In this document: in pieces, positions 25,628 to 61,561 of the stretch
Position numbering within the stretch: the first letter of the stretch is position 1
Layout: each line of letters opens with the position of its first letter
From: a virus
IMG/VR virus record: IMGVR_UViG_3300029448_007456
Span: 1-64,000 of that record
Reading direction: 5' to 3' (one strand)
DNA: 64,000 nt
Made by a program: the position numbers and the translations under genes
Notes under the pieces: model-generated
Databases searched by the model: none
What the model was told of the DNA's origin: nothing
What the model saw: only the letters and a program-made list of their open reading frames with translations

Positions 25628-25909
25628 ATGTTCATCAAAGAAACCACAGAAATACACCTACATCAACGCGAATCTAAGTTGGGCAACGTTCATAATTTCA
25701 AACGCAGACGTAGTGTGTATCACTTCAAATGTGACTGCTGTGATAAGGAGTTCATGCGTGACAAATCCAAAGTAACACCCAGCAGAGCATCTAATAATTT
25801 TCATCATGTGTGTGCCAAATGTGATGTCCATAAATATGCTCAGCAAGTAGGCGTCAACATGCGTAAGATTTACAAATTAGATGCCAGTTCAATAGAGGTC
25901 AAAATATAG
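25628..25909 (+). CDS. Cys-rich hypothetical protein
   Basis: CDCC...HVCAKC; TAAATA at 25603-25608. Confidence 0.6.
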   Translation: MFIKETTEIHLHQRESKLGNVHNFKRRRSVYHFKCDCCDKEFMRDKSKVTPSRASNNFHHVCAKCDVHKYAQQVGVNMRKIYKLDASSIEVKI

Positions 25910-27768
25910 TGTCAAAACAAAACATTTATCTGTGCCAGTTTTCATCGTGTTATCCTGGTGCTAGAAAGATATTGTATTATCCTTACAGCGTTGGCATGAT
26001 TTGGAGTTATGCTAAAACGATACCGGAAATCGATCAATCATTCCATTGTAAGTTTTTTCTGGAGAAAAAAGAATTCACAGAGATCATAGACAGACTGGAA
26101 GATCCTGCATTGATCGGATTGTCTTCATATGTGTGGAACCACAACTACAATCTTAAACTTGCTGAAATGATTAAAGAAAAATATCCAGATTGTCTCACTG
26201 TGATTGGTGGCCCTAGTGTGCCTTTCAGAGACAAAAACTTCCTACAAGACCATTCCTACATTGATTTTGCAATATATCACGAAGGTGAACTTGCATTCAC
26301 AGACCTACTACTTCACATCAAAAAAAACAAACCAAAACATGATATTCGAGGCATAGGATTTATAGACAGCAACGGAGAAATTGTAGCCAACAAGGCCGAA
26401 AGGATTCCTGATCTTGATAACATCCCTTCACCTTATTCAACAGGACTTTTTGATGAACTCACAGAAGAATACAAAGACACAGACATAATATTAAATGTGG
26501 TAACAGAAACCAACAGAGGTTGTCCATATTCATGCACATTCTGTGACTGGGGAAATGGTACTCTTGGCAAAGTGCATCAAATGGACATATGTAGAACTTT
26601 ACAGGAACTTGATTGGTTCAGTGAAAACAAGATTGAGTATCTGCACATTGCTGATGCAAACTTTGGACTAAAACGTAAAAAAGACTTAGACATAATCGGA
26701 TATGCGGCAAAATTAAAACGCGAAACAGGATTTCCAAGAACTATCAATTATACCTTGAGTAAAAAATTTTTTCCAGAACATTTGGAAATTGCAAAAGTTT
26801 TATTAGACAATCAAATGATGAGACATTTCACACTAAGTCTTCAAGACAGACACGATGATGTTTTAGATGCTATCAAAAGAAAAAACATAGATCATGACTC
26901 ATACATGAACATCAAAGATATGTGCGATGAAAGAAATATTCCAATGTGCACCGAGTTGATGATTCCATTACCCAGACAAACATTTGACAGTTTTATGGAC
27001 CAAATAGAATTTTTGATAAAACACAACATATATCCACATTTTAGTCCCACCACTATTCTTCCTGGTGCTGAAATGGCCGACCCAGAATATCAAAAAAAGT
27101 ATGGAATGAAAACAGTATTAAGTGCCATGAAACACAGTGAATATGCAGAAGAATATGAAGAAGTTGTGATTGAAACAAATACAATGAAAAAAGAAGATAT
27201 GAACGAAGCACTGATCTTGGTTTGGTTGATTGATGTATTTCAATCATACGGATTTGCTGACATAGTTTGCGACTTTTATTGTAAAACAGAAAACAAAAGA
27301 TTAAGAGATTTTTATCGTTTGCTGTTTCAGTTTTTTGTTGATAAACCAGACAGCATGTTGTTTAAGTATTTTGATCCAGTTAAAGATCATGTCAATACCA
27401 AAGACACCTATAAATTATATCCAGGTAAAGATACAGAAGGAATAATACAAGAAATAGGATATGATTGCAGAGAACAATTTTTCAAAGAATTTGAAACATT
27501 CATGCACACTGTGATTCCAGAACAATACATCAAAGACTTATTGGCCATACAAAAAGTAAGGCAAACACATTCGTATGACAAAACAGAAGAAATAGTACTA
27601 TTAGATCAAGATGTTTATGGATATACCAAACACGAGTCCGAACTAGCGCCAGCCACATACAAAATAAAATACAAACCCATCGAAAAACATTTCGAATACT
27701 ACTGCAATTTTATGGTGCACGGGGTAATGTTCAAAAGATGGAAACCTTTAGAAATAAAGAAAATTTAA
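25909..27768 (+). CDS. B12-binding radical SAM protein (class B-like)
   Basis: IGLSSYVWN, VIGGP, EGE; ETNRGCPYSCTFCDW. Confidence 0.88.
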   Translation: MSKQNIYLCQFSSCYPGARKILYYPYSVGMIWSYAKTIPEIDQSFHCKFFLEKKEFTEIIDRLEDPALIGLSSYVWNHNYNLKLAEMIKEKYPDCLTVIGGPSVPFRDKNFLQDHSYIDFAIYHEGELAFTDLLLHIKKNKPKHDIRGIGFIDSNGEIVANKAERIPDLDNIPSPYSTGLFDELTEEYKDTDIILNVVTETNRGCPYSCTFCDWGNGTLGKVHQMDICRTLQELDWFSENKIEYLHIADANFGLKRKKDLDIIGYAAKLKRETGFPRTINYTLSKKFFPEHLEIAKVLLDNQMMRHFTLSLQDRHDDVLDAIKRKNIDHDSYMNIKDMCDERNIPMCTELMIPLPRQTFDSFMDQIEFLIKHNIYPHFSPTTILPGAEMADPEYQKKYGMKTVLSAMKHSEYAEEYEEVVIETNTMKKEDMNEALILVWLIDVFQSYGFADIVCDFYCKTENKRLRDFYRLLFQFFVDKPDSMLFKYFDPVKDHVNTKDTYKLYPGKDTEGIIQEIGYDCREQFFKEFETFMHTVIPEQYIKDLLAIQKVRQTHSYDKTEEIVLLDQDVYGYTKHESELAPATYKIKYKPIEKHFEYYCNFMVHGVMFKRWKPLEIKKI

Positions 27769-36912: not shown

Positions 36913-37920
36913 CTAGTTTAGAGTTGCATTGACGGCATCAATGCCATCTTGGTCTAGCCATTTAATCCATACATCAGGATATGCTTTGAGGAACGATTCC
37001 ACAGATTCTTCAGCAGTTTCTTGCTGTTCATCCATTTTTACGATCAAACTGTTGAACAAGTTGATGTCAATGGATCTTGTGCCTAGATACTGCATGACAT
37101 CGCCATTTTGTGACATGTCACTTGATACCATTGTGTACAGAGTTGGCACACTGAAATCTGTAATTTTAGGTGAATCACAATCTTCCTTTTGGATACAATT
37201 GACCCAATGATCTGTTCCTGCAAATCCTTTGCCTGTTGGGATAGGTTGTAGATCGTACTTGCTAACCATGCCTGCTGGTTCCCAATAGAATCCAAACCAG
37301 TGATCGTCACTGTTGCCTGCCTTGCCAATACTACCGTCTAGGCCAACACCTGAACCTGGATCAACTATTTCCCAACCTTTTTCTTCTGCTCCATAGGCTT
37401 CTAAGATTTTTACTGTTGTGGTTGCACAACCCCACCCCACTGGACAGACATAAACTTTGCCGCCAAATATTTGAGGATTGTCTAACACATCTTCAACAGT
37501 TTTAAGTTCTGGATATGCTTCAAGTGTCTTAGGAAGCACATACCAATTTTCGCTAGCTCCACCTGAGATTGGCTCTTCGTTGGCAATAACTCCTGTGCCT
37601 CTTGCCAACGCATCGTCAACAATGCCTTGCACAGTTGATGCCCACAGTTCGCTGGCAACATCTGGTTCGCTTTTTTCTGCAAGGCTGGTGGCCAGTCCTA
37701 CAGTTCCGCCTTGAATCATTTGAATATTACAACCATACACTGTTTCTAGTATATACTTGTCCAAGTGGCCTAAGAATGCCGCAGATGACCATGTCATTTC
37801 TGCAACAGTGATATCGCCACAAGTTGTGTCAGCAATACTTGTCTTAGATTGCAACATTAATGCACCTGAGAACAATAATGCCACCAACATTGCTAATGTT
37901 ACTCCTGTTTTAGTCTTCAT
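36913..37920 (-). CDS. Glycine betaine/proline-type ABC substrate-binding protein
   Basis: Signal peptide, AEMTWSSA, CPVGWGC, FYWEP (OpuAC/ProX family). Confidence 0.8.
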   Translation of the reverse strand: MKTKTGVTLAMLVALLFSGALMLQSKTSIADTTCGDITVAEMTWSSAAFLGHLDKYILETVYGCNIQMIQGGTVGLATSLAEKSEPDVASELWASTVQGIVDDALARGTGVIANEEPISGGASENWYVLPKTLEAYPELKTVEDVLDNPQIFGGKVYVCPVGWGCATTTVKILEAYGAEEKGWEIVDPGSGVGLDGSIGKAGNSDDHWFGFYWEPAGMVSKYDLQPIPTGKGFAGTDHWVNCIQKEDCDSPKITDFSVPTLYTMVSSDMSQNGDVMQYLGTRSIDINLFNSLIVKMDEQQETAEESVESFLKAYPDVWIKWLDQDGIDAVNATLN

Positions 37921-42941: not shown

Positions 42942-43093
42942 AACCATACTCCTTTCGCTGTGCTTCTATCACAACCACCGCCTATGCCGCCGTCGCAATC
43001 CATGCCATGATACAATAATCTAGCTGGTTCAAAGACTACAAATATCACAACCAACACCACACTTACTATCACTGCTGTAATAAATGGCTTCAT
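42926..43093 (-). CDS. Small membrane-anchored protein (55 aa)
   Basis: Manual translation MKPFITAVIVSVVLVVIFVVFEPARLLYHGMDCDGGIGGGCDRSTAKGVWLWLAK; ATGA overlap with ligase. Confidence 0.55.
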   Translation of the reverse strand: MKPFITAVIVSVVLVVIFVVFEPARLLYHGMDCDGGIGGGCDRSTAKGVWLWLAK

Positions 43094-44403
43094 ATTTTTT
43101 CTCCTATCTCAAATCCCCTGAATGTTTTAAATCTAGGAAATCTAAGGCTGTATGAACCATCTTGATTTTGTGTTACAGCATCTCCCCTAACTTCTACAAG
43201 TTGGTTTACTATTTTATCCCTGTTGCTCCAAAACTGGTCTCTTTGGGCATCAGAAAAGCCAGAACCTACATTGACTTCGATTGTTTTGTCTCCGTCTGTG
43301 CCTTTGCACACAAATGCACCCAGTCTGCCTTCATTTCTGCCTGTGCCTGGTTCTATGTCCAACACATTCAGTGTTACTTCAATGAACGGTTTTGCTTTCA
43401 ACATGTGATGTGATCTCTTGCATTCATATGGAGCATCAACATCTTTAATCATTACTCCTTCGAATCCATTTGCGATGGCATCTTTGTTGAACTTTAAATA
43501 TTTTTTATAACCTTCAGGTGTGTCCAAATTTACTAAATGTTTCTCTAAAGGAAATAGATAATCAAACTGCTTGTCTTGAAACAGTGCATTCACCATGGCA
43601 TCTCTATCAGCACAGCCAAGGATACTTTTGCCTTTGATAAATTCGTGCTGTGCAATCATATCAAACACAGCAAACTTGGCATCACTGGCTTCAACGTTTT
43701 CTTTACGATGCACCTGCTTCATTAATGCTTGGAAACTTTTGCTGACCATTTCTCCGTCCAATATAGTTGGCACTTCAAAGCCAGGCATAATTTTTTCTCT
43801 AATCTCTTGTTCAACGTGACCAAAGTTGTGCAACTGTTTGCCGTTCCTAGTATACATGGCCACTGTGTCTTTGTCAGGATCAAAAAATGCAAGCACTCTG
43901 ACACCATCCAATTTGTAATCAATAAACTTTTCGCCATGCATCTTGTTGGCATGGTTGGCTGAGTCATGTGCCAGCATCACTTCAAATGTTGGAATCTTAT
44001 ATTTGTCTATGTTTAATTTTTTAGCAACATTGTTAATTGTTTTTTCTGTGACACCACATCGCAAGTCTTTAATCAATATTCTTCTATACCAATTGTTCCA
44101 TTGCTCACATGTGGCTTGTTTCATACGGTCTGCTATAAGATCTCTTGCCGCATGTCCGGTCACTGTTCTGTTATTAAGTTGGCGTTGCAGATCCCAGAAA
44201 GACTCTCTATCTAGTCCTGGACCGTCTTGCTCTAATGTGTCTACTTTTTGCACATTGAAAACATATAATTTGTTTAGTGCAATTCCTAATCCTTCAAAAA
44301 ACTGATCATTGCCTGCTTCCATTTCACGGGCAATTACTCCTTCTTTGAACAATCGTGAATTATCTGATTCCAGTTCTTGTATTATTGTGTATGGCTCATT
44401 CAT
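43090..44403 (-). CDS. ATP-dependent DNA ligase
   Basis: KLDGVR, LDGE, FDM, EGVMIK, VGSGF, LRFPRF. Confidence 0.93.
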   Translation of the reverse strand: MNEPYTIIQELESDNSRLFKEGVIAREMEAGNDQFFEGLGIALNKLYVFNVQKVDTLEQDGPGLDRESFWDLQRQLNNRTVTGHAARDLIADRMKQATCEQWNNWYRRILIKDLRCGVTEKTINNVAKKLNIDKYKIPTFEVMLAHDSANHANKMHGEKFIDYKLDGVRVLAFFDPDKDTVAMYTRNGKQLHNFGHVEQEIREKIMPGFEVPTILDGEMVSKSFQALMKQVHRKENVEASDAKFAVFDMIAQHEFIKGKSILGCADRDAMVNALFQDKQFDYLFPLEKHLVNLDTPEGYKKYLKFNKDAIANGFEGVMIKDVDAPYECKRSHHMLKAKPFIEVTLNVLDIEPGTGRNEGRLGAFVCKGTDGDKTIEVNVGSGFSDAQRDQFWSNRDKIVNQLVEVRGDAVTQNQDGSYSLRFPRFKTFRGFEIGEKI

Positions 44404-44434
44404 ACACTTATTATATGATATTTGGAAAATGTGT

Positions 44435-44460
44435 CAATCGGGGGCAAAAACCCCCGATTG
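44435..44460 (-). terminator. Perfect 10-bp hairpin after porin gene
   Basis: CAATCGGGGG-6nt-CCCCCGATTG; overlaps -35 of ligase promoter. Confidence 0.65.
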
Positions 44461-44470
44461 TATTAGGTTT

Positions 44471-45259
44471 TTAGAATGATAATTCAACACCCATTGCTGG
44501 AGTTGTTTCTTCTGAGTCTAAATTGTAGTTTGCTTCAACATAGTAACCTAGATCTTTCCAAGTTCCTTTGTATCCTGCACCCACGTTCTTTGACCAGTCT
44601 GCTTCATTACCATCAACATAAGCAGATAAACCGCCTATTGATAGTATTGATTCATATGCAACTTCATCAGTAAGTGATGCGTCCTGTGTTACCACAGTTG
44701 AAACATTTGCTGACTCGTTGAGTGCAAACGCAACTGAACCTGCATAGATGTTGTCATCTGATGCAATTGTGTGATCCACAGATGCACCTACAGTGAACTT
44801 GCTTACTGTTGTGCTGTATTTTGCCTGAACAGTATCAAAGTCTGAGATGTCTGTGTCTGTGTCAGAAAATTTACCTCTTACAGATAAACCACTGATGTTT
44901 AACACAATGCTCTCGCCTGCATCACTTGGGTTTGCGATTGTATTCGCTCCCACCGTTTCAAGACCTCCACCAATAAAGATGTCGCCCTGATCGCCGTATG
45001 ATACAGATGTCGTCGCAGTTATATTTGCACCTATTTGATATTCGTCTAGTACAAATTGATCCGAAGCATTTGTCTTAACGTCGATTGAACCAAAAGCAAC
45101 ACCTGAGTCGCCTGCGATTCCTAACTTGATTGATTCAGTTGAGATGTAGTCATTACTTGCGTTTTCTGTAATGTCAAGTTCCACTTTACCGGTAATTGTG
45201 GCAGCTTGTGTTACACCTGCAAAACCTAAAGCAATCAATAATGCTGTTAGTTTTTTCAT
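44471..45259 (-). CDS. Outer-membrane porin-like beta-barrel
   Basis: Signal peptide, amphipathic strands, C-terminal Phe (GVELSF). Confidence 0.65.
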   Translation of the reverse strand: MKKLTALLIALGFAGVTQAATITGKVELDITENASNDYISTESIKLGIAGDSGVAFGSIDVKTNASDQFVLDEYQIGANITATTSVSYGDQGDIFIGGGLETVGANTIANPSDAGESIVLNISGLSVRGKFSDTDTDISDFDTVQAKYSTTVSKFTVGASVDHTIASDDNIYAGSVAFALNESANVSTVVTQDASLTDEVAYESILSIGGLSAYVDGNEADWSKNVGAGYKGTWKDLGYYVEANYNLDSEETTPAMGVELSF

Positions 45260-45337
45260 GTAGTATAGTCTCCTCTATAGTTTGGTTTATTATATAATAA
45301 ACGTATACCAAATCGCAACCAAAAAATTGTGTCTGCG

Positions 45338-45375
45338 AAAAGGCATACCGCTTTATATAGTGTCAGCATGCCTTT
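45338..45375 (-). terminator. Rho-independent terminator after pstS
   Basis: GGCATGCTG/CGGTATGCC stem followed by TTTT. Confidence 0.7.
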
Positions 45376-45391
45376 GGTTTAAGTGTTATGA

Positions 45392-46408
45392 TTATTTAGA
45401 AGCCTTGGCTTTTAAATCCATTGTGGTTAAGTTTTCTACAATTGCTTTGACTTCTGCCGCCTTGTCTTCTGCAAGTGGCACCAGTCCGAGTGAACCAAGA
45501 AAACCATCAATAGATGTGGCTTCATCTGATATGAACAATTTAGCATATTCCTCAATGCCAGGAACGATGCCAACATGATCTTTTTTGATGTAGTAAAACA
45601 GAGGTCTTGCTATTGGATATTCATATGATTGAATTGTTTCCAATGAAGGCTTGACTCCGTTCACTGTAGATCCTTTGATGGCATCTTTATTTTCCAACAG
45701 ATATGAATAACCAAAGAATCCAAATCTATCAGGACTGTCTTTAAGTTTGTTCACAATGAGTGTGTCGTTCTCACCCATCTCTGTGGTTGCACCATCTTCT
45801 CTGAAGTGTTTGCACCCGTTTTTTTCTGTTTGTAGGTCTTTGGCTCCAGCTTCTTTACAGCCTTTTTTCATCACTAATGATTCCCAAGCATCTCTGGTGC
45901 CCGATGATGGTGGTGCCACCAATATATCGATTTTCATGTTTGGCAGTGATGCATCAATTTCTGACCACTTTGTGTATGGATTAGGCACTAGTTTGCCGTC
46001 CACAGGCACTTCTTTGGCCATTGCTAACCACAACTGTTTAGTGGTCACTTTCATGTCAGGACCTTCCAGTGAGTTGGCAAACACAATGCCGTCGTTGCCT
46101 ACAATAACTTCAACAACACTGTCAACGCCATTGTCTAAACACAATTTGGCTTCTTTGGACTTCATAGCCCTTGAAGCATTTGTGATGTCTGGATGTTCTA
46201 GGCCTACACCGGCACAGAACATTTTCATACCACCGCCTGATCCAGTGGATGCCACAGTGGGTGCTTTTGAACCAGCTTCGCTCAGTCTTTCTGCCACAAC
46301 AGTAGAGTATGGATACACTGTAGATGAACCTACAATGTTAATGATATCTCTTGCCTGTAGTGTGGAAGAAAGGAGAACTGAAGCTAGTAGGATTACTAAC
46401 TTGTTCAT
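45392..46408 (-). CDS. pstS: Phosphate ABC transporter substrate-binding protein
   Basis: IVGSSTVYP, STGSGGG, NASR, SSGTRD, YPIARPLFYY; SD before MNKLV. Confidence 0.92.
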   Translation of the reverse strand: MNKLVILLASVLLSSTLQARDIINIVGSSTVYPYSTVVAERLSEAGSKAPTVASTGSGGGMKMFCAGVGLEHPDITNASRAMKSKEAKLCLDNGVDSVVEVIVGNDGIVFANSLEGPDMKVTTKQLWLAMAKEVPVDGKLVPNPYTKWSEIDASLPNMKIDILVAPPSSGTRDAWESLVMKKGCKEAGAKDLQTEKNGCKHFREDGATTEMGENDTLIVNKLKDSPDRFGFFGYSYLLENKDAIKGSTVNGVKPSLETIQSYEYPIARPLFYYIKKDHVGIVPGIEEYAKLFISDEATSIDGFLGSLGLVPLAEDKAAEVKAIVENLTTMDLKAKASK

Positions 46409-46471
46409 GATAAATTTCCTTTCATTGTATGGAGTATCCATAGATATATATTAAAATTATATGCTTATATA

Positions 46472-46511
46472 ATTACACAATTGTTACAATTTCTTTAAGA
46501 ATTTATTACAG
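46472..46511 (-). promoter_or_regulatory. Pho-box-like 11-bp direct repeats upstream of pstS
   Basis: CTGTAAT-AAAT-TCTTAAA-GAAA-TTGTAAC-AATT-GTGTAAT vs PhoB consensus CTGTCAT-N4. Confidence 0.6.
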
Positions 46512-46559
46512 TGAACCAATGATATCTCATAGAAGAGTGTAAATGTTCTCTATGTGGGA

Positions 46560-46787
46560 TCAATGAATGGATACAGTTTTGCAATGATCACGTCGATTGA
46601 ATCCAGTGCCTTCTAGTTCTTCTTGTTTTGCAAACAGGCAAAACCATGCAGAATCTTCACAGTCTTTCTGACGATCATAAACACCATCGGATATAATTGC
46701 TTTGTGGGTATTGGGTTTACGATAATAGAATGCATGACCTTTGAGTTGGTCATCATAATACACAGTGATATGTGGTTCACGTGTCAT
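46560..46787 (-). CDS. Hypothetical protein
   Basis: Start MTREP 5 nt after TAAATA. Confidence 0.5.
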   Translation of the reverse strand: MTREPHITVYYDDQLKGHAFYYRKPNTHKAIISDGVYDRQKDCEDSAWFCLFAKQEELEGTGFNRRDHCKTVSIH

Positions 46788-47397
46788 GCAAATATTTATT
46801 GAAATTTTGCGTGGTATCCCTTGAAAAATTTGCATGTCTATGCCACTGTTTTGGACATTGATATTCTGCAGGTGCTATCCAAACAAAATTGACATGTGGA
46901 TAACTTTCAAACAGTTTGTCCAATTGATGATGCCAATACTTAGGATCGACTGCTTTGTTATCATATCCATTTGTATTGGCATACACATTAGTGTAGTTGT
47001 TTTGTTGTGTCATATCGAAACCGATCAGATAGCAAAGATTGGTTGTCTGCATGTTCCATTCATAGTTTTTAAATGCACAAGCAATGTTGATTGCATGTGG
47101 ACCTGAATTCCAATGCCAAGGGTTGTCTTCTCTTTCAGTTCCATTGTATGGCAGTTCTGGATAAGCACTTACCATGAACTTAGTATTCCAGTTTGGTCTA
47201 GTGTATAACTGTCCTGGGTAGTCAGATGATAATACCTCAGCAACCATTCGCTGATCAGCGGCTGACACTATGTCTGGATGAAAGTCTCTTACGATTGCGT
47301 TACAGCCGACAGTGACTCCTTGCTTTTTACAAGAGTCAAGATCTATCGGCTGTCTGCTCTCACCATTGCCTATTACAAAGGTGATGCGTTTTTTCAT
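46777..47397 (-). CDS. Hypothetical protein, GT29/DUF115-like Rossmann fold
   Basis: VIGNGESR, GCNA, NSGP, LIGFD. Confidence 0.5.
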   Translation of the reverse strand: MKKRITFVIGNGESRQPIDLDSCKKQGVTVGCNAIVRDFHPDIVSAADQRMVAEVLSSDYPGQLYTRPNWNTKFMVSAYPELPYNGTEREDNPWHWNSGPHAINIACAFKNYEWNMQTTNLCYLIGFDMTQQNNYTNVYANTNGYDNKAVDPKYWHHQLDKLFESYPHVNFVWIAPAEYQCPKQWHRHANFSRDTTQNFNKYLHDT

Positions 47398-49175
47398 TAA
47401 AATAGATATTTTAAACTGACAGCAAATTCTCTGCCAGGCTGTGTATATCCCATTGGTCTTTCATATGCCAAATCAGTCACGTTGTTGATTGTGGCAGTTA
47501 CTTCAGTGGCGTCACTCACTTTATACAAAAGTCCGATGTCTGTGTAGTGTTGTTCACTATTGGTCACAGTTGACCAATTGGTTGGGTGAATATCTTTGTG
47601 TTCACCATAGTAGTTCCAATCATACCAAACTTTCAACTTGTCTGTGACATCATGACCTAAACCAACCACAGCAGAATACTGCGGGCGTCTAGTTAATTGC
47701 ACATCATCTGAATCCTGTGCATGCACGGACGTTACACTAAAGTTGATTGTTGTGTCATCATACTGTTGTTTGTTCTGCAACTCCCAACCTTCCATAGAAC
47801 TGGTTCCAGTTGTGTTGTTATAAGTTGAGTTTGAATAAGATATCATGTTGTCAATTTTTGTGGAAAACACAACAAACTTGCTGTCCATACTGACATATTC
47901 GTTTTTGACTTTTGACACCAATCCAATTTCGTTGTTCACTGAACGTTCTTCTTCAAGACTAGCATTGCCTGAATATCCGAAGTTGTCAGCACCATACATT
48001 TCATACAGTGTAGGCGCACGGAATCCTGTGTTGTGTCCTGCAATGGCTGTCATGTGGTCATTTAATTTGTAACCAACACCAAGTCGATACGTGTTAACAT
48101 CATCATGTAAACTGTTAGTATCATGTCTAACTCCTGTGTTCAACAACACATTACCTAGTTTGTAATCTGCATTTAGAAAATATGCATTTGCTTGTGCTGA
48201 TTTGTCCACAGATGAATTGTAAGATCCTTTGTTGTCAAATTTTGCTGTGTAGGCTGATCCTTCTGTTCCAACGGTGTATTCTACTGGCCCAAATGTATTG
48301 GTATGGGATAGTTTGATATGATTAGTTGAACTGTCGTAAGTGTCTATCTCTGTGCCATTCACATATTCACGGTCATGCACGTTTCTATCAATGACAAAAT
48401 TTACAACATCTGATTCGTATCTTGCTTGTAAAAAGTAAAAATCTGAATCTGATGTGTAGTCAGTGTCGTCAGTGCCACCTGCATCAAGGTCAGCACTTGC
48501 ATCTCTATACACCACTGTGGTGCCAATTTTTGCATTTTCAGTGTAGTGCGTTGAATCAAAGTTCAATGTCTGATACTGATATCCGTCATTGTCTCCGCCT
48601 TCTACAATAGAATATCCATCGGATGATTCTTGATACATTTTAATAGAGTATATTCCTGATGGTTGTGCAGTAAAATAGTTTACTCCAAGGCCTGCGGTGT
48701 TGTTAGATCCAGTCTTAAGTTCTACACTGTCTTCTAATGTGCCTCCAGTGTTGATGTTAATAGCACCACCAATTGCACCAGGTCCCCAAAGTGTGCTCTG
48801 CGATCCTTTGTATAAATCAATTGAACCTGCATAAGTCACTGAATCTACACCTGCATCAAACAATCCGTTAGTTGTAGAATGGTCAGTTACTGGTGATCCG
48901 TTGATCATAAACAGTGTGTGGTTGGAATTAGTTCCTCTTGTAAACACAGAGGTTTGTTGTCCACGTGGTCCAGATCTTATTGCTTGAAATGAAGTATTGC
49001 TGTCCAGCACTTCACCTATGGTCACAGTGTTCTTATAGGACTGTGTTTTGACTGTGTCCACATTTGTTGTTAATAAACTTTTGTCACTTGGCACAATATA
49101 CAGTGTGACATCAAGAGCACTGGCAGTTGCTATTGATCCAAAAACAAAAGTCAAGATTATCGTTAGTATTTTCAT
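47397..49175 (-). CDS. btuB: TonB-dependent cobalamin receptor
   Basis: Plug motif SVFTRGTNSNHTLFMING, GFRAPTLYE, NNVTD..Y..PGR..YLF; preceded by Cbl riboswitch; start MKILT after SD. Confidence 0.88.
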   Translation of the reverse strand: MKILTIILTFVFGSIATASALDVTLYIVPSDKSLLTTNVDTVKTQSYKNTVTIGEVLDSNTSFQAIRSGPRGQQTSVFTRGTNSNHTLFMINGSPVTDHSTTNGLFDAGVDSVTYAGSIDLYKGSQSTLWGPGAIGGAININTGGTLEDSVELKTGSNNTAGLGVNYFTAQPSGIYSIKMYQESSDGYSIVEGGDNDGYQYQTLNFDSTHYTENAKIGTTVVYRDASADLDAGGTDDTDYTSDSDFYFLQARYESDVVNFVIDRNVHDREYVNGTEIDTYDSSTNHIKLSHTNTFGPVEYTVGTEGSAYTAKFDNKGSYNSSVDKSAQANAYFLNADYKLGNVLLNTGVRHDTNSLHDDVNTYRLGVGYKLNDHMTAIAGHNTGFRAPTLYEMYGADNFGYSGNASLEEERSVNNEIGLVSKVKNEYVSMDSKFVVFSTKIDNMISYSNSTYNNTTGTSSMEGWELQNKQQYDDTTINFSVTSVHAQDSDDVQLTRRPQYSAVVGLGHDVTDKLKVWYDWNYYGEHKDIHPTNWSTVTNSEQHYTDIGLLYKVSDATEVTATINNVTDLAYERPMGYTQPGREFAVSLKYLF

Positions 49176-49178
49176 AAA

Positions 49179-49278
49179 GTCTCCTTGCTTTGTTCTACCC
49201 CTAGGTGGCATTCGGACTATAACCGTATCAAGTAATGTGAACGAATTTCACGTCGCTTTCCCACTATGCTTTTAGGAA
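49179..49278 (-). ncRNA. Cobalamin riboswitch, class IIa (AdoCbl-variant)
   Basis: CCUAAAAGCAUAGUGGGAAAGCGACGUGAAAUUCGUUCACAUUACUUGAUACGGUUAUAGUCCGAAUGCCACCUAGG...GCAAGGAG; near-identical in layout to the env8 HyCbl riboswitch. Confidence 0.93.
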
Positions 49279-49284
49279 CTATTG

Positions 49285-49314
49285 TATTTTATATGTTTTA
49301 GATGTGTTTGTCAA
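49285..49314 (-). promoter_or_regulatory. Sigma70-type promoter for riboswitch-btuB
   Basis: TTGACA-17-TAAAAT directly upstream of aptamer. Confidence 0.7.
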
Positions 49315-49328
49315 GAACTTTGATTGTT

Positions 49329-49775
49329 TTATGCAAATCTAAATTTTGGTATTTCAAAAGTGTGCTTCTGCAGATATTCGAACATTTGTGCAAAGATCAA
49401 TGTGCTGATCAACATGTTCACATAGAACGGAATGGCCATCATATAACAAGTGATCAAACCTTCCAGAGTATAACCATACCATCCACCGGTCCACACAGCA
49501 AAATTAGTCACAACAAAAAACAGTGTTGCACTAAAAATTGCACCACGTTGAAAATATGCAATTGCAAATAGACTGGCGTATACCCACAGCATGTAAGAAT
49601 GAAACCCAATTATTGCATCTGAAATAATGTATGCAATTAAACATGGCAGTACACTGACAAGACCAGTCATCATAAACACAGCAATCACTGGTGTAAAGTT
49701 TGGTGGATGCGGAAGCAGTCTAGACGCCACTATGCAAAAAAGCATAAAAATTGTGGTATAAGTATTTTTTGACAT
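49329..49775 (-). CDS. DUF6580 family membrane protein (putative B12 uptake component)
   Basis: SRLLPHPPNFTP, FFVVTNFAVW, CYMMAIPF. Confidence 0.75.
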   Translation of the reverse strand: MSKNTYTTIFMLFCIVASRLLPHPPNFTPVIAVFMMTGLVSVLPCLIAYIISDAIIGFHSYMLWVYASLFAIAYFQRGAIFSATLFFVVTNFAVWTGGWYGYTLEGLITCYMMAIPFYVNMLISTLIFAQMFEYLQKHTFEIPKFRFA

Positions 49776-49823
49776 GGTTACGTTACTATATATTTATTTT
49801 ACTGTTTTGTCAAACAAATCGTA

Positions 49824-51350
49824 ATGATTGATTTCCTATTAATCACTGGCCCTGTGAGAGACTTAACTTTTGCACCAATGGCACTAGCACAGTTAAAAAG
49901 TATCAGCGAAGCGGCTGGATTCACATGTAAAACCATAGATTACAATCAAAAATACTTTCATCACCAATGCAACAAAGACAAAAACAAGTTTTATGAACAA
50001 ACCAAAATGTTTAGAAACACTTTGCCACTGACCTATGATGAAATTGCCAACAGTCATTGTGGTACTTGGTTGGCACATAAAGTAATACAAGATGTCAAAA
50101 AATACAATCCTAAGACAGTTGGGGTGAGCAGTTTTAGTAGATACAACAACATATCTTGCGTGTTGATCTGTAAAATTATCAAACAGCATTTTGCACACAT
50201 CAAAATTATTATTGGTGGATATGGTCTACACAATCCCCTAAATTATCTAGATGCCTTTGATGCAACTCTACAATCACAACCCGAAGTTGGCGAGTTACTC
50301 AAAGTCAACAACTTATGTGACACCTATATTATCGGTGATGCAGAACACAAATTGATAGAATGGTTGAAAGATCACACAGTGGATTATTCTGGATTGAACA
50401 AAAGGATTATTGATGCCAATTGGACTGATACTCCTTATGCTGACTTCGAGGATCTCGACATAGAAAATTACGACTATCACAAAGGATTAATACTACCAAT
50501 GACTGGCAGTAAAGGATGTGTAAGAAAATGCACTTTCTGTGACATCCCACATAACTTTGGTAAATTTTCGTTCAAGTCAGGAAAATCAATAGCAGATGAA
50601 GTGATGCATCTTTATGAACACTATGGAGCCAAAACAATTTATTTTACAGATTCGCTGGTGAATGGCAGCCTCAGTGCATTCATTGATTATGTAGAAACTT
50701 TAGCAGAACTAAAAGCAAAGAAAGGGTATGACGATCTAAGATGGACTGGACAATACATTGTGAGACCAGCACATCAAATTCCTGATCCGGAAAATTATTA
50801 TGCTCTGTTGAATGAAAGTGGAGCAGAAGGACTTACTATAGGTATTGAGTCTGGCAGTAACAAAGTTTTGGCTGAAATGAAAAAACACTGCACTGTGGAT
50901 GATATTCTCACTGAAATCAATTATTTTTCCTCACATGATGTGTCTTGTGGTATATTATTGTTTCCTGCATTTCCATCTGAGACTAGACAAGATTTTTTAG
51001 CCACAGTGAAAATGTTGAAAAAATTACAACCATATTGGTGCAACGGTACAATAAATCTTGTAAACTTCAACACATTTTATGGCAATGAAAATTACAGTGA
51101 ATGGGGTAAAAAGACAGAACAAGACGGCATGTATTCACATCCCAATGATCATAGTTTATGGTGGTATAAAAATAATCCAAAACTAGATTACAAAGAGATT
51201 GTGTTTAGGAGACTGGTATTGAATAAGTTGGTTGAAACTCTCAATATTCCAACCAATCACGAATATGACTACATGACCCAAATTCATAATTATTTTACAA
51301 CAAACATAGGAAAGGTAAAAAAGTTTCATGCTGACATTAAAAAACATTGA
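49824..51350 (+). CDS. B12-binding radical SAM protein
   Basis: APMALA, VGVSSFS, IIGG, GDAE; SKGCVRKCTFCD; IGIESGS. Confidence 0.85.
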   Translation: MIDFLLITGPVRDLTFAPMALAQLKSISEAAGFTCKTIDYNQKYFHHQCNKDKNKFYEQTKMFRNTLPLTYDEIANSHCGTWLAHKVIQDVKKYNPKTVGVSSFSRYNNISCVLICKIIKQHFAHIKIIIGGYGLHNPLNYLDAFDATLQSQPEVGELLKVNNLCDTYIIGDAEHKLIEWLKDHTVDYSGLNKRIIDANWTDTPYADFEDLDIENYDYHKGLILPMTGSKGCVRKCTFCDIPHNFGKFSFKSGKSIADEVMHLYEHYGAKTIYFTDSLVNGSLSAFIDYVETLAELKAKKGYDDLRWTGQYIVRPAHQIPDPENYYALLNESGAEGLTIGIESGSNKVLAEMKKHCTVDDILTEINYFSSHDVSCGILLFPAFPSETRQDFLATVKMLKKLQPYWCNGTINLVNFNTFYGNENYSEWGKKTEQDGMYSHPNDHSLWWYKNNPKLDYKEIVFRRLVLNKLVETLNIPTNHEYDYMTQIHNYFTTNIGKVKKFHADIKKH

Positions 51351-51897
51351 ATCAGAGATTGATAAATGTGTTGCTCTAGCAGATGAGTATTCCTATAGAT
51401 TTGAAATTGAACTGCAAGGTGTATTGTGCAACGGAGATCCTAACACATTTATAAAAATTAATCAAACCACATACTATGAAGAAAAGTTTAATGGTGACAA
51501 AAGTTTTGTGATCGATTGTGTGTTGCCAAAAGATAGTGTGTGCAACATTGTGATTGGATTACAGCACAAACAAACTTCCAACACAATACTACAGAACAAT
51601 AAAATCATACAAGATCAATTTGTCAAAATACGAGACATAAGAATCAATCAAATCAGTTTAGTAAAAAATAATTTATACTTTTGGGACCATTCCAAGTTTG
51701 TGATGCAAAACAATGGTGAAGTCCTGCACAACAGAGATGGAGCATATTTTAATGGTGAATTCATATTGTCGTTGCAGACACCTATATTTCCTTATCTCAG
51801 TAAATTGTTTCAGGACAATATAAAAAATTACAATGTTGAAAACAAATTTTTGTCATCTGAACACAGACAGGAATTGATTCAAGCAGTGTATGATTAG
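51328..51897 (+). CDS. Hypothetical radical-SAM-associated protein
   Basis: Coupled to rSAM gene; similar to 5890..6294. Confidence 0.55.
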
Positions 51898-52490
51898 ATG
51901 TCTTCTCTGTGAGCGATAATTTTATCAACTAATCCAAACTCTAATGCTTCTTCAGGAGACATGAATTTATCACGTTCCATAGAATCATTAATAGTTTCGA
52001 TTGTTTGCCCTGTATGGTCAGCATACATTTGGTTGAGTTTTTTCTTGATCTTTGTGATTTCTTCTGCATGGATAAGGATGTCAGTGGCTTGACCTGATGC
52101 TCCTCCTGATGGTTGATGAATCATGATGCGTGAATTTTTCAGTGCATATCGTTTTCCTTTGGTACCTGCCATAGCCAGTAGGGATCCTGCTGAACAAGCT
52201 TGTCCTATGACTAGTGTTGATATGTCACACTTGATAAACTGCATTGTGTCATACATGGCTAGACCTGCTGTGACCAGTCCGCCTGGCGAATTAATATACA
52301 TAAAAATGTCTTTGTCAGGTGCCTGTGATTCCAAAAATAGTAATTGTGCTGACACAATAGAGGACACTTGTTCGTTGATGCCTCCAGTCAAAAATATAAT
52401 TCTTTCTTTTAATAAACGTGAAAATATATCATAGGACCTTTCGCCCTTTGATGTCTGTTCTATAACAACAGGTACTAAACTCATATCCAT
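51894..52490 (-). CDS. clpP: ATP-dependent Clp protease proteolytic subunit
   Basis: [25 protein letters not shown] (Ser), MIHQP (His), ERD (Asp). Confidence 0.97.
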
Positions 52491-54892: not shown

Positions 54893-56809
54893 ATGCTTAA
54901 TTTAGTGTTAGCACAACCTGGTTTCAGTTGGGGACCATCTCATCTGAATGCTCATTATCTTCCTTATTCAGTTGGTTGTTTGTGGGCGAAATGTCTAGAC
55001 AATCAAACAATTGTTGAAAATGTTGAACTTTTAGACATGATTGCTGTGCGTGAAGATATTCAACACTTTGTTGACAAATATGATAAAATTGATGTTATTG
55101 GTTTTTCTTGCTATGTTTGGAATTACAATTATGTCAATGCTTTAGCCAAAGCAATCAAACGCAAGTTTCCTGAGTGTGTTGTGGTTTTCGGAGGCCCAGA
55201 ACCAGAACACAGTGATCAAGACATATTTGTCAATAAACCTTGGCTTGACTGTGTGGTGGTGCAGGAAGGCGAAGTTAGTTTTGAAAGAATTCTTGAATGC
55301 TTGATTACTAAAAAAAGTTTGGAAACAATTCCTGGATTGGTAATCAACAAACGGGGTCAAAGACTGGTTACACCCATATCACAAAGAATAACTGATCTTG
55401 AGTCCTTGCCTTCACCCTACATCAAGGGCGTGTTTGATCATTTGTTTCACAAACACCCTGATATCACTTGGACAGCCATAATGGAAACCAACAGAGGTTG
55501 TCCTTACAAATGCACATACTGTGATTGGGGTAGCCTCACATTAAGCAAGATCAAAAAGTTTTTGCTGGACAAAGTGGAACAAGAAATCAAATGGATGAGT
55601 GATAAAAAAATAGACTTTGTTAACATAGCAGATGCCAACTATGGCATTTTCAAAGAAAGAGATTTAGCCATCACACGACTATTTGGCAAATATAGATCAA
55701 TCACTGGATGGCCAAAAGCAGTCACAACCAATTGGACAAAAAATGCCAAGAAGCATGTGTTGGACATTGCTCAAGAATTCAAGGATCAAGGCATTGCAAA
55801 CAGTGTGACAGTCAGTTTACAGAGTCTACACGATGATGTGTTGGATGCTGTTGAAAGGAAAAATTTTGAACTCAACAATATCGAAGAAATGTCCATGGCT
55901 TGTTTTGAAAAACAATTACCAGTGGCTGTTGATTTAATTTTGGGATTGCCTATGGAAACAAAAAAATCTTGGAGGCAGACATACTACAAGTTATTTGATC
56001 TAGACATTCATCAAGATTTTTACACACATCAAGCCATGCTGTTGGAAAATGCACACATGAATCAAAATCAATTGCATCAGTATGGTATGGAAAAATTTAC
56101 AAGGCCCATCAAGTTTACTGAAGACAATATGCAACACACTGAATACGCAACCTTTGTCAAAAGCACAAACACAATGACGTATGATGATATGATTGACTGT
56201 GCAATGCACACCAATTGGATTTATGCTCTGCATCACACTGGCCTAAGTTCTGAGCAGAGCAAATTTTTGCACAAACACAGCGGGATACCTTATGCAACTT
56301 TTTACAATGGTCTGATTGAATTTTTGTTGCAACATGATTTTATGCACAATTGTTATCAGCAAAGCGTTGAGCAAATCAAGATGTCCTACAGTGATATAAA
56401 CCAACCCACTTTGGAACAAATTGACCTTAGCCTAAGTGGTGAGTTTAATATACTTGAATGGAATATTATTAATAAAAAGATTGAAACTGATATACAAAAT
56501 TGCATCAAAGAGTTCATTGACACACGATTTACAATTGACAAGGATCTAGTTGATCAGTTGGACGTATATGCACAACTCAGTTACTTGACATTTGAAAATC
56601 ATACGAAGTTTGATCAACTGTCACATGAATTTGATTATAATTTTTATGAGGTCAACAATTTAAATGCTGACATGGCAAAAGGCAAACATACATATGTTTT
56701 TAAGAAAAAGTTATCACAGACTTTTGAAAACACTGTGGACTATGCAAATTACATGATTGTGCGAAAACGTAACATTCCTTCAAAGAACATCATCACACAA
56801 CAAGATTAG
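54893..56809 (+). CDS. B12-binding radical SAM protein (paralogue of 25909..27768)
   Basis: LPYSVG, IGFSCYVWN, FGGP, EGE; ETNRGCPYKCTYCDW; TAAATA at 54876-54881. Confidence 0.88.
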   Translation: MLNLVLAQPGFSWGPSHLNAHYLPYSVGCLWAKCLDNQTIVENVELLDMIAVREDIQHFVDKYDKIDVIGFSCYVWNYNYVNALAKAIKRKFPECVVVFGGPEPEHSDQDIFVNKPWLDCVVVQEGEVSFERILECLITKKSLETIPGLVINKRGQRLVTPISQRITDLESLPSPYIKGVFDHLFHKHPDITWTAIMETNRGCPYKCTYCDWGSLTLSKIKKFLLDKVEQEIKWMSDKKIDFVNIADANYGIFKERDLAITRLFGKYRSITGWPKAVTTNWTKNAKKHVLDIAQEFKDQGIANSVTVSLQSLHDDVLDAVERKNFELNNIEEMSMACFEKQLPVAVDLILGLPMETKKSWRQTYYKLFDLDIHQDFYTHQAMLLENAHMNQNQLHQYGMEKFTRPIKFTEDNMQHTEYATFVKSTNTMTYDDMIDCAMHTNWIYALHHTGLSSEQSKFLHKHSGIPYATFYNGLIEFLLQHDFMHNCYQQSVEQIKMSYSDINQPTLEQIDLSLSGEFNILEWNIINKKIETDIQNCIKEFIDTRFTIDKDLVDQLDVYAQLSYLTFENHTKFDQLSHEFDYNFYEVNNLNADMAKGKHTYVFKKKLSQTFENTVDYANYMIVRKRNIPSKNIITQQD

Positions 56810-57097: not shown

Positions 57098-58465
57098 CTA
57101 ATTGCCCTGGGTGGTAGAAAGAGTGCAACCTGCTTGTGTGCCACAGGTCATGTCAATGCTGTAATCTTGATCAGTGGATCCTTGCTGTGACAGATCAAAA
57201 TCAGTGGAATAGCCATCTAGATCAACACGAGCCGCATGGTTACCAGTGCCAGTTTGACTGATATCCACATCATGTGCATAACTGCCTGTACCAAGTGTTA
57301 GATCTAAATAGTGTTCACCTGTGCCTGACTGATTGATATCAACAGTGTTGTTGCCATTGTCTATGTCCACAAACAAAAACTTATCCCCATCGTTTAACTG
57401 TTGCATGGTGATCACATTAGAAGAAGAATCTAAATCCACACTCATGAAGTGCTCTGAAGATGTTGTACCATCATTGCGTTGTTGTAAAGTCAATGTGTTG
57501 GTTGATCCATCAATATCAATCAGCATTCTGTGATCTCCTACATCAGTGGCATAGTCACCTTGGGATAGATTCAGTGTGTTGGTATTGCCTGTGATGTCTA
57601 GTCCTATGCCGTTCCTACCACTGCTTCCAGATGTAGTCACATTGCCTTGATCAATATTGAGTGTGTTGTCGTTGCCTGTGATTTGTGAATCACTGGACCA
57701 ATCACTGCCAACAACAAAATTATCATTGCCTGCTTGTTCAATATTAATTGTGTTGTTGTTGCCTTGCACATTCATTTTAATCCCGCTGTCTGATGTGCCT
57801 TTGGCTGTGTTCACTGCTGTGGTTTGTGAAGATGTGATTGTAACATTAACTGTGTTTTGGTCAGTGGTTGCAAAACCAGAGTTAGGCATATCTAACCAAC
57901 CACTTGTAGAGTTTAAACTTAAATTAGATAAACTATAATGTATATCCATATTAGCAGAACCACCCCATTCATACCAGTTAATTTGTATTGGGTACCATTG
58001 ACCACCAACACCAGAAAATGAACCACTAGAGTTCCAATATGTTGGTCCTTGTTGAGCCCAGTCAGATATTACTTTAGTATTATTGATGTTTACAATAAGT
58101 CCATCATCATTACGACCAGCAAAATAAACTGTTGATGTTTGACCTGTGGTTCCTGGATGTTGCCAATAACCGGTGATAACTACCATTCTCTGATTAGCAC
58201 CATAATTATTATTATGAAGAACTATATTTCCACTATTCCAGTTGTAATTTAAACTGTCAGTAGTACCAGTTCCTTGTGATAGACCTACATAACTTGGACT
58301 AGAATTATTACAGGTAGAGAGATATGTATAGTTGTTAAAACAAGGTGACTCTACATAAGGTGCATAATGACTAATTGCAAATACTTCATAATTTAAACTT
58401 CCTGCATATGCACTTGAACAAAGCAAAAACAAGATGCTACTGATTTTGAAGAATGCTAATTTCAT
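57098..58465 (-). CDS. Secreted PA14-like domain plus curlin-like repeat protein
   Basis: Signal peptide; NDDG...YEWGG (PA14); repeated IxQxGxxN units. Confidence 0.7.
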   Translation of the reverse strand: MKLAFFKISSILFLLCSSAYAGSLNYEVFAISHYAPYVESPCFNNYTYLSTCNNSSPSYVGLSQGTGTTDSLNYNWNSGNIVLHNNNYGANQRMVVITGYWQHPGTTGQTSTVYFAGRNDDGLIVNINNTKVISDWAQQGPTYWNSSGSFSGVGGQWYPIQINWYEWGGSANMDIHYSLSNLSLNSTSGWLDMPNSGFATTDQNTVNVTITSSQTTAVNTAKGTSDSGIKMNVQGNNNTINIEQAGNDNFVVGSDWSSDSQITGNDNTLNIDQGNVTTSGSSGRNGIGLDITGNTNTLNLSQGDYATDVGDHRMLIDIDGSTNTLTLQQRNDGTTSSEHFMSVDLDSSSNVITMQQLNDGDKFLFVDIDNGNNTVDINQSGTGEHYLDLTLGTGSYAHDVDISQTGTGNHAARVDLDGYSTDFDLSQQGSTDQDYSIDMTCGTQAGCTLSTTQGN

Positions 58466-59534
58466 TTTCCTGTCCGTTAATGGTGTAATCTATTATTTCG
58501 TAATCTTGTTGTTGCACATTTAATATATAAGTGTTTTCTTTGTCCAGCCTTAATTCAATAAAGTTGCCTGCCGCATCTTCTCTGCTCCACACAAAATGTG
58601 GATCTTCGTCTAGCAGTATAATTCCTGTTGTTGGATCTTTTCCAAACCGCTGTCCTTCGACTTTTTTGTCAAATTCACTTCTCATCTGTTTGGCCAGTTC
58701 TTCGTTGATTTGTTTTAGAATATCCACAAGAAAGTTTTGTTCTAAAAAATCAATATCCAATCCCGTTGCCCAATTTTCAATTTCTTCTTCTAAAGCATCG
58801 ACATTAAGATCATCAAATTCCAAAAAGTCAATGTCAAGTGCATTGGCCACAGCATTATAGGATGAATTGTCCTGTTGTTCTTGGATTTCTTTTGGCTTGC
58901 TAATAATTAACAAATTGTTGATCATATCTTCTTCTAAACTAAGAATCACTGGCCGCATGGGCACACTTGCAACAGTATCAACAACTGTAGCCTGGAATGC
59001 CTGGTTCATTATGACTTGACCAGCATCTGATTCAACTGATATTTCCCCCACATAACATTTTCCATCTGTGTTGCAACTTGGCAATAATATAATTGTGCTA
59101 CTTCCTATTTCGTCCACTGTCATGGCAAAATCAGTGCCTCTAACTCCTATGGTTGCTGTTGGAGTTTGTATCAATACATTCTGTTTGGAGTTTTTGGCAA
59201 TTTGTCCTGATGCATAACGCACAGTGCCAAGACCTGCTTTAAGCGACAACTTGCCTGTGCCACTGGCAGGATCATACACAAATTCATCAATAACAAGTTT
59301 TGAATGTTGGGTGATATCTACTCTGGTTTCATCAACAAATTCAATGGCAGTCTTGCCTTTGCCAGTTCGGACTGTGTCGTATGAAAACACATCAAGGTCA
59401 ATTTCAGTGACTGCTTCTTCGCCATCAGTACGCTCCACAGCACCAGTGCCTTCGTGCAGTATGACATTCCCTATACTGGCCCATGAGTTTACTGTCAGCA
59501 CAAAACTGCACAGCAAATAAAAAAGAAAGTTCAT
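58437..59534 (-). CDS. FecR-domain protein
   Basis: Signal peptide; DTVRTG; IQTPTATIGVRGTDF. Confidence 0.85.
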   Translation of the reverse strand: MNFLFYLLCSFVLTVNSWASIGNVILHEGTGAVERTDGEEAVTEIDLDVFSYDTVRTGKGKTAIEFVDETRVDITQHSKLVIDEFVYDPASGTGKLSLKAGLGTVRYASGQIAKNSKQNVLIQTPTATIGVRGTDFAMTVDEIGSSTIILLPSCNTDGKCYVGEISVESDAGQVIMNQAFQATVVDTVASVPMRPVILSLEEDMINNLLIISKPKEIQEQQDNSSYNAVANALDIDFLEFDDLNVDALEEEIENWATGLDIDFLEQNFLVDILKQINEELAKQMRSEFDKKVEGQRFGKDPTTGIILLDEDPHFVWSREDAAGNFIELRLDKENTYILNVQQQDYEIIDYTINGQENEISILQNQ

Positions 59535-60217: not shown

Positions 60218-60232
60218 TTATTTGTGTATCCC

Positions 60233-61030: not shown

Positions 61031-61031
61031 G

Positions 61032-61490: not shown

Positions 61491-61495
61491 GCTTG

Positions 61496-61561
61496 TATTT
61501 AATGGTTTTTGAACCCAAATGATGTGCAGACACTTATGAACAGTTGTGCAAAAGTTAAATA
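61496..61561. promoter_or_regulatory. Back-to-back TAAATA late-type promoters
   Basis: TAAATA (-) at 61496-61501 and (+) at 61556-61561, each 5-7 nt before an ATG. Confidence 0.6.

Follow-up and report, generated by a model that had tools for sequence, protein, structure and literature searches.

The cobalamin riboswitch env8HyCbl (Johnson et al. 2012) belongs to the AdoCbl-variant (Cbl-IIa) family RF01689 and has a compact four-way-junction aptamer followed by a short P13 hairpin. The loop of this hairpin, L13, contains the ribosome binding site (RBS) and needs to be presented on a hairpin, and the wild-type J1/13 linker is 7 nt long (Polaski et al. 2016, PMC5028336). The L5–L13 kissing loop always includes two unpaired purines and a non-canonical pair (PMC5028336). 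Control by a cobalamin riboswitch usually marks corrinoid transport (PMC2211319). Here, we describe a riboswitch of this family that precedes a btuB-like receptor gene, next to a gene for a DUF6580 membrane protein, in a 64,000-base stretch of viral DNA (the window), which comprises bases 1–64,000 of the 114,778-bp IMG/VR virus record IMGVR_UViG_3300029448_007456. The record is a linear, uncultured fragment with a CheckV completeness of 34%, which at this length indicates that it is part of a jumbo genome. Our best reading of the locus, which we consider probable, is that it is a phage module for the supply of vitamin B12 with translational feedback.

Other described systems resemble the locus in part. 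The leader of E. coli btuB (RF00174) also confers cobalamin-dependent translational repression, and the phage receptor aligns over its full length with E. coli BtuB (PDB 1NQE); however, the E. coli leader is a long class I riboswitch that senses AdoCbl, and inner-membrane uptake is carried out by BtuCDF, with no S-component-like protein. BtuM, which is found beside btuB in bacteria lacking BtuCDF, has an invariant cobalt-ligating cysteine (Rempel et al. 2018, PMC6072759). The BtuM of Thiobacillus denitrificans (8OVV, 8C7P) has a small six-helix, solitary S-component fold and works with no energy-coupling factor (ECF) module. The same three parts as in the window, including a riboswitch of the same family, form an operon in SAR11 (Pelagibacteraceae). 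SAR11 is the most abundant marine bacterium.

To our knowledge, riboswitches are rare in phages. Glutamine riboswitches are present in phage Melnitz, pelagimyophage Mosig and cyanophages (PMC9004378); the present element would likewise be a metabolite-sensing RNA in a lytic marine phage of streamlined bacteria, but differs in ligand and in the gene controlled. A 2020 survey of pelagimyophages included a “TonB-dependent vitamin B12 receptor” among the substrate-transport genes in its supplement, while its text stated that a riboswitch scan found none in those phages (PMC7029224). In the literature searched, we came across neither an account of a phage cobalamin riboswitch nor any mention of DUF6580. 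An earlier note on this DNA, made from the sequence alone, had called such a riboswitch unusual in a phage. This is accurate with respect to that literature, but not with respect to marine viral contigs, among which the arrangement proved to be common.

Two matches in the whole window exceeded the gathering score in an Rfam cmscan search, RF01689 and RF02980 (the latter is described below). The RF01689 match is an AdoCbl-II aptamer of the env8HyCbl-like, Cbl-IIa type at 49198..49278 on the minus strand, with helices P1, P3, P4, P5 and P6, and covers model positions 1–81 of 81 at 78.4 bits (gathering score 36.5, E = 6e-18). Relatives were sought with a profile of the receptor, which matched 113 IMG/VR contigs, and 80 of these loci were fetched. 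A purpose-built covariance model scored the window aptamer at 79.3 bits and also matched 25 of the 80 viral btuB loci as well as SAR11 loci. In an alignment of 37 distinct sequences, fitted to the covariance model and therefore biased towards the structure, 95.2% of the cells were in standard pairs, compared to 67.6% in shuffled alignments, with none of 500 shuffles as high, and 31–43% when the partners were slid by 1–3 columns; 19 of the 22 pairs were altered on both sides. The 12 distinct viral sequences, aligned with the same bias, gave 94.7% paired cells (73.8% shuffled, 28–46% slid), with 14 of 22 pairs altered on both sides, including all six in P1. Despite the fitted alignments, we regard the fold as secure, given how large the effect is and how the slid controls behave. 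The phage switch is a genuine and canonical representative of an established riboswitch class, found in a new setting, and its likeness to env8HyCbl suggests the ligand preference of Cbl-IIa.

Two other routes to the structure were set aside. An RNAalifold consensus from a MAFFT alignment (model R1) had the wrong structure and was replaced by a model using the Rfam-derived structure (R2). Thermodynamic folding of the leader gave a minimum free energy structure without the aptamer fold (z-score +1.39); such folding is uninformative here because this RNA is driven by tertiary contacts, and we relied on the covariance model and on covariation.

The expression platform (49175..49197, minus strand) consists of the J1/13 linker, P13, L13 and the start codon. 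The linker reads UAGAAC(A), 6–7 nt, and leads into the P13 stem, (A)AAG/CUU(U), which is closed by the 8-nt loop L13 (CAAGGAGA, 49187–49180). This loop contains the Shine–Dalgarno sequence (SD) GGAG (49184–49181), within GCAAGGAG at 49188–49181, and the SD ends 5 nt before the btuB ATG at 49175–49173. When the aptamer loop L5 (UACUUG, 49234–49229, minus strand) is placed antiparallel to L13 (CAAGGAGA), the two form a U-A pair, an AG bulge, an A·G pair, and then C-G, U-A, U-A and G-C pairs. The phage element thus shares with env8HyCbl the four-way-junction aptamer, the J1/13 of about 7 nt, the short P13 and the RBS loop, and its L5–L13 contact has the U-A pair, the two unpaired purines (AG) and the A·G pair. 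Unlike env8HyCbl, it is phage-borne, has CUUG/CAAG as its L5/L13 letters, and belongs to a near-invariant, phage-specific sublineage that always precedes btuB.

Fifty phage copies retain the P13 hairpin and its loop, and the stem varies in a compensatory manner, reading GAG/CUC in most phages and AAG/CUU in the window. The four Watson–Crick positions of the L5/L13 contact covary across 70 copies from cells and phages, which fall into four variants: CCUG/CAGG in most SAR11 copies, CCCG/CGGG in L022 and L041, CCAG/CUGG in the viral loci L102, L104 and L108, where it is accompanied by a compensatory change in P5, and CUUG/CAAG in the phage type. Judging from env8HyCbl, the phage element should act as a translational OFF switch.

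A sigma-70-type promoter for the riboswitch–btuB transcript (49286..49314, minus strand) matches the consensus at 11 of 12 positions. It has TTGACA at 49314–49309, a 17-nt spacer, and TAAAAT at 49291–49286, so that the −10 element ends 7 nt before the aptamer. Promoter-like sites are not enriched in the region (13 found, 14 expected from shuffles), and the promoter is credible not from the frequency of such sites but from its position before the aptamer and from the equal geometry (TTGACA-17-TAAATT-7 nt) in L004, an independent viral contig whose spacer has another sequence. A further locus, L181, shares the promoter–aptamer geometry of the window. The earlier note had read off the intact promoter, the full aptamer and an SD in the kissing-loop position directly before the btuB ATG, and these results bear out all three. 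Contigs from RNA libraries, in which DNA carry-over is possible and uncovered parts carry no meaning, give a weak hint of expression only: one metatranscriptome had contigs over 48191–49271 (the riboswitch plus the beginning of btuB) and nowhere else within the 10 kb compared, and contigs from an oligo-dT library covered parts of btuB and of the open reading frame (ORF) that follows it.

The gene controlled by the switch (47397..49175, minus strand) encodes a btuB-like TonB-dependent outer-membrane receptor of 592 aa with a signal peptide, a Plug domain (PF07715, 48.8 bits) and a TonB_dep_Rec_b-barrel domain (PF00593, 100.2 bits). Its best sequence matches in the PDB are E. coli BtuB chains (E = 9e-12), with residues 37–592 aligned to BtuB 26–594. 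The top NCBIfam model is TIGR01779, TonB-dependent vitamin B12 receptor, at 166.8 bits with a cut-off of 599.7, and the second BtuB equivalog model, PRK10641, also scored below its cut-off (121.6 and 836 bits, respectively). The identification as btuB was therefore upheld at the level of “BtuB-like”, rather than as an equivalog, and cobalamin as the substrate follows from the rank of the best hits together with the riboswitch. Behind the signal peptide is a possible TonB box (DVTLYIV) with weak conservation. No match to the receptor was found by tblastn in 50,697 deposited phage genomes, and its viral relatives are in uncultured contigs only. A 40%-identical TonB-dependent receptor (MBR19515.1, P0034 cluster) is filed under a “Euryarchaeota archaeon” metagenome-assembled genome; an outer-membrane receptor would be of no use to an archaeon, and the source is probably a viral contig that was binned wrongly.

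The ORF after btuB (206 aa, 46777..47397, minus strand) belongs to a virus-only family. Its ATG overlaps the btuB stop codon (TAATG), and it is therefore probably translationally coupled to btuB. The ORF is kept after btuB in L094, L095 and L096. Its nearest named Atlas cluster is MptE-like (PF01973 in 34% of the members, score 0.90), which we regard as a lead only.

The DUF6580 gene (148 aa, 49329..49775, minus strand; PF20221, 92.1 bits, cut-off 27) has its own sigma-70-type promoter, TTGACA-17-TATAGT, at 49785..49813 on the minus strand, with 11 of 12 matches to the consensus. Its −10 element ends 9 nt before the ATG, and the mRNA is therefore probably leaderless or nearly so. Because the gene has this promoter and lies upstream of both the btuB promoter and the switch, it escapes the riboswitch: the pairing of btuB with DUF6580 is correct as to adjacency and family, but only btuB is under riboswitch control. 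An AlphaFold (AF2) model made from 29 homologues (mean pLDDT 85.8) was used in a structure search, in which the top match was BtuM in complex with hydroxycobalamin (8ovv_A; Z = 12.6, rmsd 3.6 Å, 139 residues aligned). The next 14 ECF S-components had Z scores of 8.0–11.8, and unrelated folds reached at most 5.9. The top three matches, BtuM, BioY and another S-component, lay within 1 Z of each other, and Foldseek also placed S-components first, albeit weakly. The predicted protein thus resembles BtuM in its small six-helix, solitary S-component fold with no ECF module. However, searches with a single sequence and with a profile, at E values up to 10, gave no sequence similarity to BtuM or to any other solved chain, and none of the cysteines is invariant among the 29 DUF6580 sequences, which have invariant PHPPN, D..G.H and TNF..W motifs instead; H23, D53, H59 and W95 are among the invariant residues. 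In view of the missing similarity and of the lack of the cysteine that defines BtuM, DUF6580 is a separate family.

In about 20 SAR11 loci, an AdoCbl-II riboswitch is followed by a BtuB-like receptor and then by DUF6580. Among 401 sampled Pseudomonadota genomes, DUF6580 was present in four; in two of the three non-SAR11 genomes with DUF6580, the gene comes directly after a TonB-dependent receptor, behind an RF00174 riboswitch (117 and 100 bits). The suggestion in the earlier note that DUF6580 could provide the inner-membrane uptake step thereby gains both a predicted fold and a placement in riboswitch operons of three bacterial lineages. From the modeled fold and this context, DUF6580 may work like BtuM, as an S-component-like inner-membrane carrier of cobalamin.

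Among reference genomes, it is the Pelagibacteraceae that encode the closest cellular relatives of the receptor (30–33% identity) and of DUF6580 (35–44%), and a SAR11-like host is plausible on these relationships. In the cellular operon, the order is riboswitch, btuB, DUF6580, which puts both genes under control, whereas the phage controls only btuB of the two. The SAR11 switch is also extended downstream by about 60 conserved nt, its linker is 17 nt long, and its L13 (CAGGAAAA) is away from the start codon. The extension (AGUCCGCUGUUGAAUGAAGGCCAGGAAAAGUCUAGUUCUACAAU...) is highly conserved in the SAR11 loci (L012, L021, L025, L027, L031, L036 and others), with L13 placed 17 nt after P1, and the expression platform is longer than, and different from, those of env8 and the phages. 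The phage switch subtype was not seen in SAR11 loci.

The B12-uptake module is widespread in marine phages. The exact pattern of the phage-type aptamer was found on 30 IMG/VR contigs, with a BtuB-like ORF behind all 30; 27 of these ORFs matched the receptor hidden Markov model significantly, and the remaining three are cut by contig ends. Four arrangements of the parts were seen. The window and L004 have DUF6580, switch, btuB; eight loci with a SAR11-like switch have switch, DUF6580, btuB; sixteen loci have switch and btuB, with DUF6580 absent within 3 kb; and others have DUF6580–btuB without a switch, e.g., L090–L095 and the complete 328-kb phage G003.

No DNA of the module is better conserved than the aptamer. 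The window and L004 have 92.6% nucleotide identity in this segment, compared to 66.7% in the btuB coding sequence, 61.5% in the DUF6580 coding sequence, and 64% in the promoter region. The receptors behind the 30 near-invariant phage-type switches are only 25–62% identical, and the window aptamer is 89–90% identical to copies that precede receptors with only 27–32% protein identity. The conservation of the aptamer and of the SD loop, together with the compensatory pairs in P1, P5, P13 and the kissing loop, indicates that B12-dependent control is under selection. The module as a whole diverges faster than its neighbors: in a comparison of 43090–52490 with L004, protein identity is 62% for BtuB and 55% for DUF6580, but 92–94% for ClpP and PstS. 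This fast divergence points to cassette exchange or to diversifying selection on envelope proteins.

In the mechanism that we propose, host RNA polymerase would transcribe the module early from the two sigma-70-type promoters. One promoter would give DUF6580, an S-component-like inner-membrane carrier presumed to work like BtuM, and the other a leader of about 105 nt, containing the env8HyCbl-type riboswitch, together with the BtuB-like outer-membrane receptor. Cobalamin bound in the four-way junction would stabilize the kissing contact between L5 (ACUUG) and L13 (CAAGGAGA), which would bury the Shine–Dalgarno sequence and block translation of btuB and, via the TAATG overlap, of the coupled 206-aa ORF. 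Additional receptor would then be produced in the infected cell only at low intracellular levels of B12, most likely to supply cobalamin to the phage’s own B12-dependent radical SAM enzymes. The family and covariation of the RNA, the geometry of the kissing loop, the family and fold matches of the proteins, the gene order and the recurrence of the locus are what we observed; that the RNA binds its ligand and in which direction it responds, that both proteins transport, that expression is early and that the module is linked to radical SAM enzymes we infer from them.

Candidate users of the cofactor are encoded close by. Divergent from the DUF6580 gene is a candidate class B radical SAM gene (49824..51350, plus strand) with a Radical_SAM domain at 54.8 bits and a B12-binding domain at 20.5 bits, below its cut-off of 32.1; its leading NCBIfam matches are all B12-radical-SAM families, and its product is a candidate user of the imported cofactor. 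Two class B radical SAM genes elsewhere on the plus strand have B12-binding and Radical_SAM domains above the cut-offs, at 25909..27768 (39.7 and 43.4 bits) and 54893..56809 (50.8 and 49.5 bits). Bases 64–115 kb of the record (L007–L009) contain four more radical SAM genes, of which three also encode SPASM domains. Radical SAM homologues occur at most 3 kb from btuB in 29 of the 80 viral loci. Among five whole records checked, with no correction for relatedness, all three with the riboswitch carry a B12-binding radical SAM protein and both without the switch carry none. A demand by class II ribonucleotide reductase was also considered and was ruled out, because the phage reductase is class I (NrdAB), which is B12-independent.

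Several observations weigh against a B12-supply module, including the B12-independent reductase and the scores of the receptor far under the BtuB equivalog cut-offs. Phage G003, although complete, has DUF6580–btuB with neither the riboswitch nor any protein with a B12-binding domain, so that feeding radical SAM enzymes cannot be the sole reason why phages keep the module. The earlier note had expected the receptor to depend on host TonB–ExbBD, which would constrain the host; the 115-kb fragment gave no TonB_C or ExbB match, and five SAR11 genomes with this operon (G006–G010) gave no TonB_C match. A TonB_2 search was uninformative, as its control genomes were silent. The lack of sequence similarity between DUF6580 and BtuM and the lack of an invariant cysteine count on the same side, as does the third non-SAR11 DUF6580 gene (G038), which has no B12-related neighbors within 1.5 kb. 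Finally, the fast divergence of BtuB and DUF6580 relative to their neighbors would also fit an arms race at the cell surface.

BtuB is well known as a docking site of phages and colicins. We considered the possibility that the phage receptor acts at the cell surface, where it would replace or mask the host BtuB against superinfecting phages or bacteriocins, or serve as a decoy, with the riboswitch as inherited baggage. The rapid evolution of these exposed proteins compared to ClpP and PstS fits such a role, as does the retention of btuB in a complete jumbo phage without any B12-binding enzyme. However, the aptamer and SD loop, the best-conserved DNA of the module, indicate with their compensatory pairs selection for B12-dependent control, and the pairing with a carrier known from B12 operons and with B12-dependent enzymes suggests transport. 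We consider the surface role unlikely as the main function, although it is compatible with a role in transport. Slightly less likely still is the import of a cargo other than complete cobalamin; cobinamide, pseudocobalamin and further tetrapyrroles or metal chelates are candidates, and the riboswitch would then report the end product only. The BtuB models were matched well under their cut-offs, haem-receptor models also reached about 100 bits, and BtuM itself binds cobinamide (PMC6072759); on the other hand, BtuB is the best full-length match in both the PDB and NCBIfam, and the presence of a cobalamin riboswitch is itself the usual sign of corrinoid transport (PMC2211319).

The segment could also be host DNA, either through an assembly chimera, as the earlier note had cautioned, or as a bacterial (e.g., SAR11) island miscalled as viral. 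SAR11 chromosomes do hold the same three parts as an operon, the record is an uncultured, incomplete fragment, and the receptor has no homologue among the INPHARED phage genomes. Nevertheless, phage genes flank the module on both sides, and the record encodes a baseplate wedge protein, a gp44-type clamp loader and an Mtd_N tail-fibre protein, as well as a Lon-like protease, UvdE, ligase, NrdAB, ClpX, ClpP, CsgG and CsgF, at a coding density of 92% (ORF call). The best match to CsgG is in Pelagibacter phage HTVC008M (64.6% identity), and that to the clamp loader is in Pseudomonas jumbo phage PA5oct (57%). The independent contig L004/L094 repeats the order of the window, i.e., ClpP, DUF6580, riboswitch, btuB, 206-aa ORF, 91-aa ORF, PstS, 262-aa ORF, ligase, with synteny extending to both sides of the B12 module, and relatives of the receptor are encoded on the 113 IMG/VR contigs. 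At least 0.82 of the sampled words of a 4-kb stretch were present in 14 marine DNA runs from eight studies (2014–2025), and contigs at 100% identity from two independent runs span the btuB/206-aa ORF, riboswitch/DUF6580, DUF6580/radical SAM and radical SAM/ClpP junctions. Gene order and riboswitch subtype are unlike those of SAR11, and GC content is uniform over the region. A host origin is thus very improbable, and we conclude that the source is a piece of about 115 kb of a marine jumbo phage and not a chimera. The sole irregularity was an approximately threefold contig depth at 49012–49345, over the aptamer, relative to its flanks in two marine metagenomes, with loose contig ends that resemble the expression platforms of other phage lineages. 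Both are expected if several co-occurring phages share the aptamer, which appears to be the case, and short-read assemblies appear to break there too.

If the locus is indeed a B12-supply module, the phage retains metabolite feedback on an auxiliary gene instead of plain over-expression. From the recurrent adjacency of btuB and radical SAM genes, it seems that phages supply an enzyme together with the means of loading its cofactor, which bears on how viral infection affects marine vitamin B12 cycling. The comparison also gives a testable function to the uncharacterized DUF6580 family, which is found in SAR11, a bacterium that lacks a convincing BtuCDF. FecCD matches in SAR11 (G006–G010, including HIMB114) are weak, at about 30 bits in 270-aa ORFs, and were taken as other metal permeases, although a BtuC may still be present. 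A broader proposal is that DUF6580 proteins are a new family of stand-alone S-component cobalamin importers, the missing inner-membrane B12 carrier of SAR11 and many marine phages, and that a phage-specific lineage of compact cobalamin riboswitches allows infected cells to raise B12 uptake on demand for viral radical SAM chemistry, so that these cells would be a regulated sink in the B12 economy of the ocean; we put this forward tentatively, with somewhat less than even confidence.

Other genes of the window also bear on the host. CsgF, CsgG, a FecR-domain protein and a curlin-repeat protein are encoded in a block at 57098–61568 (minus strand), as in pelagimyophages and Melnitz, and these curli genes are similar to their counterparts in SAR11 and OM43 myophages (PMC7029224, PMC9004378). 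Two auxiliary genes for periplasmic substrate-binding proteins, OpuAC of the glycine-betaine type (36913–37920, minus strand) and PstS for phosphate (45392–46441, minus strand), fit a host that lives on such substrates, like SAR11. An ARAGORN scan of the full record was negative for both tRNA and tmRNA, and Rfam gave nothing further in bases 64–115 kb. The second RNA match in the window, RF02980 (“freshwater-2 RNA”, 24145–24227, minus strand; 68.3 bits, gathering score 49.9), ends in AAGGAGAAAACAAAUG directly before a 197-aa ORF (23554–24147) and is a candidate cis-regulatory motif in a marine phage.

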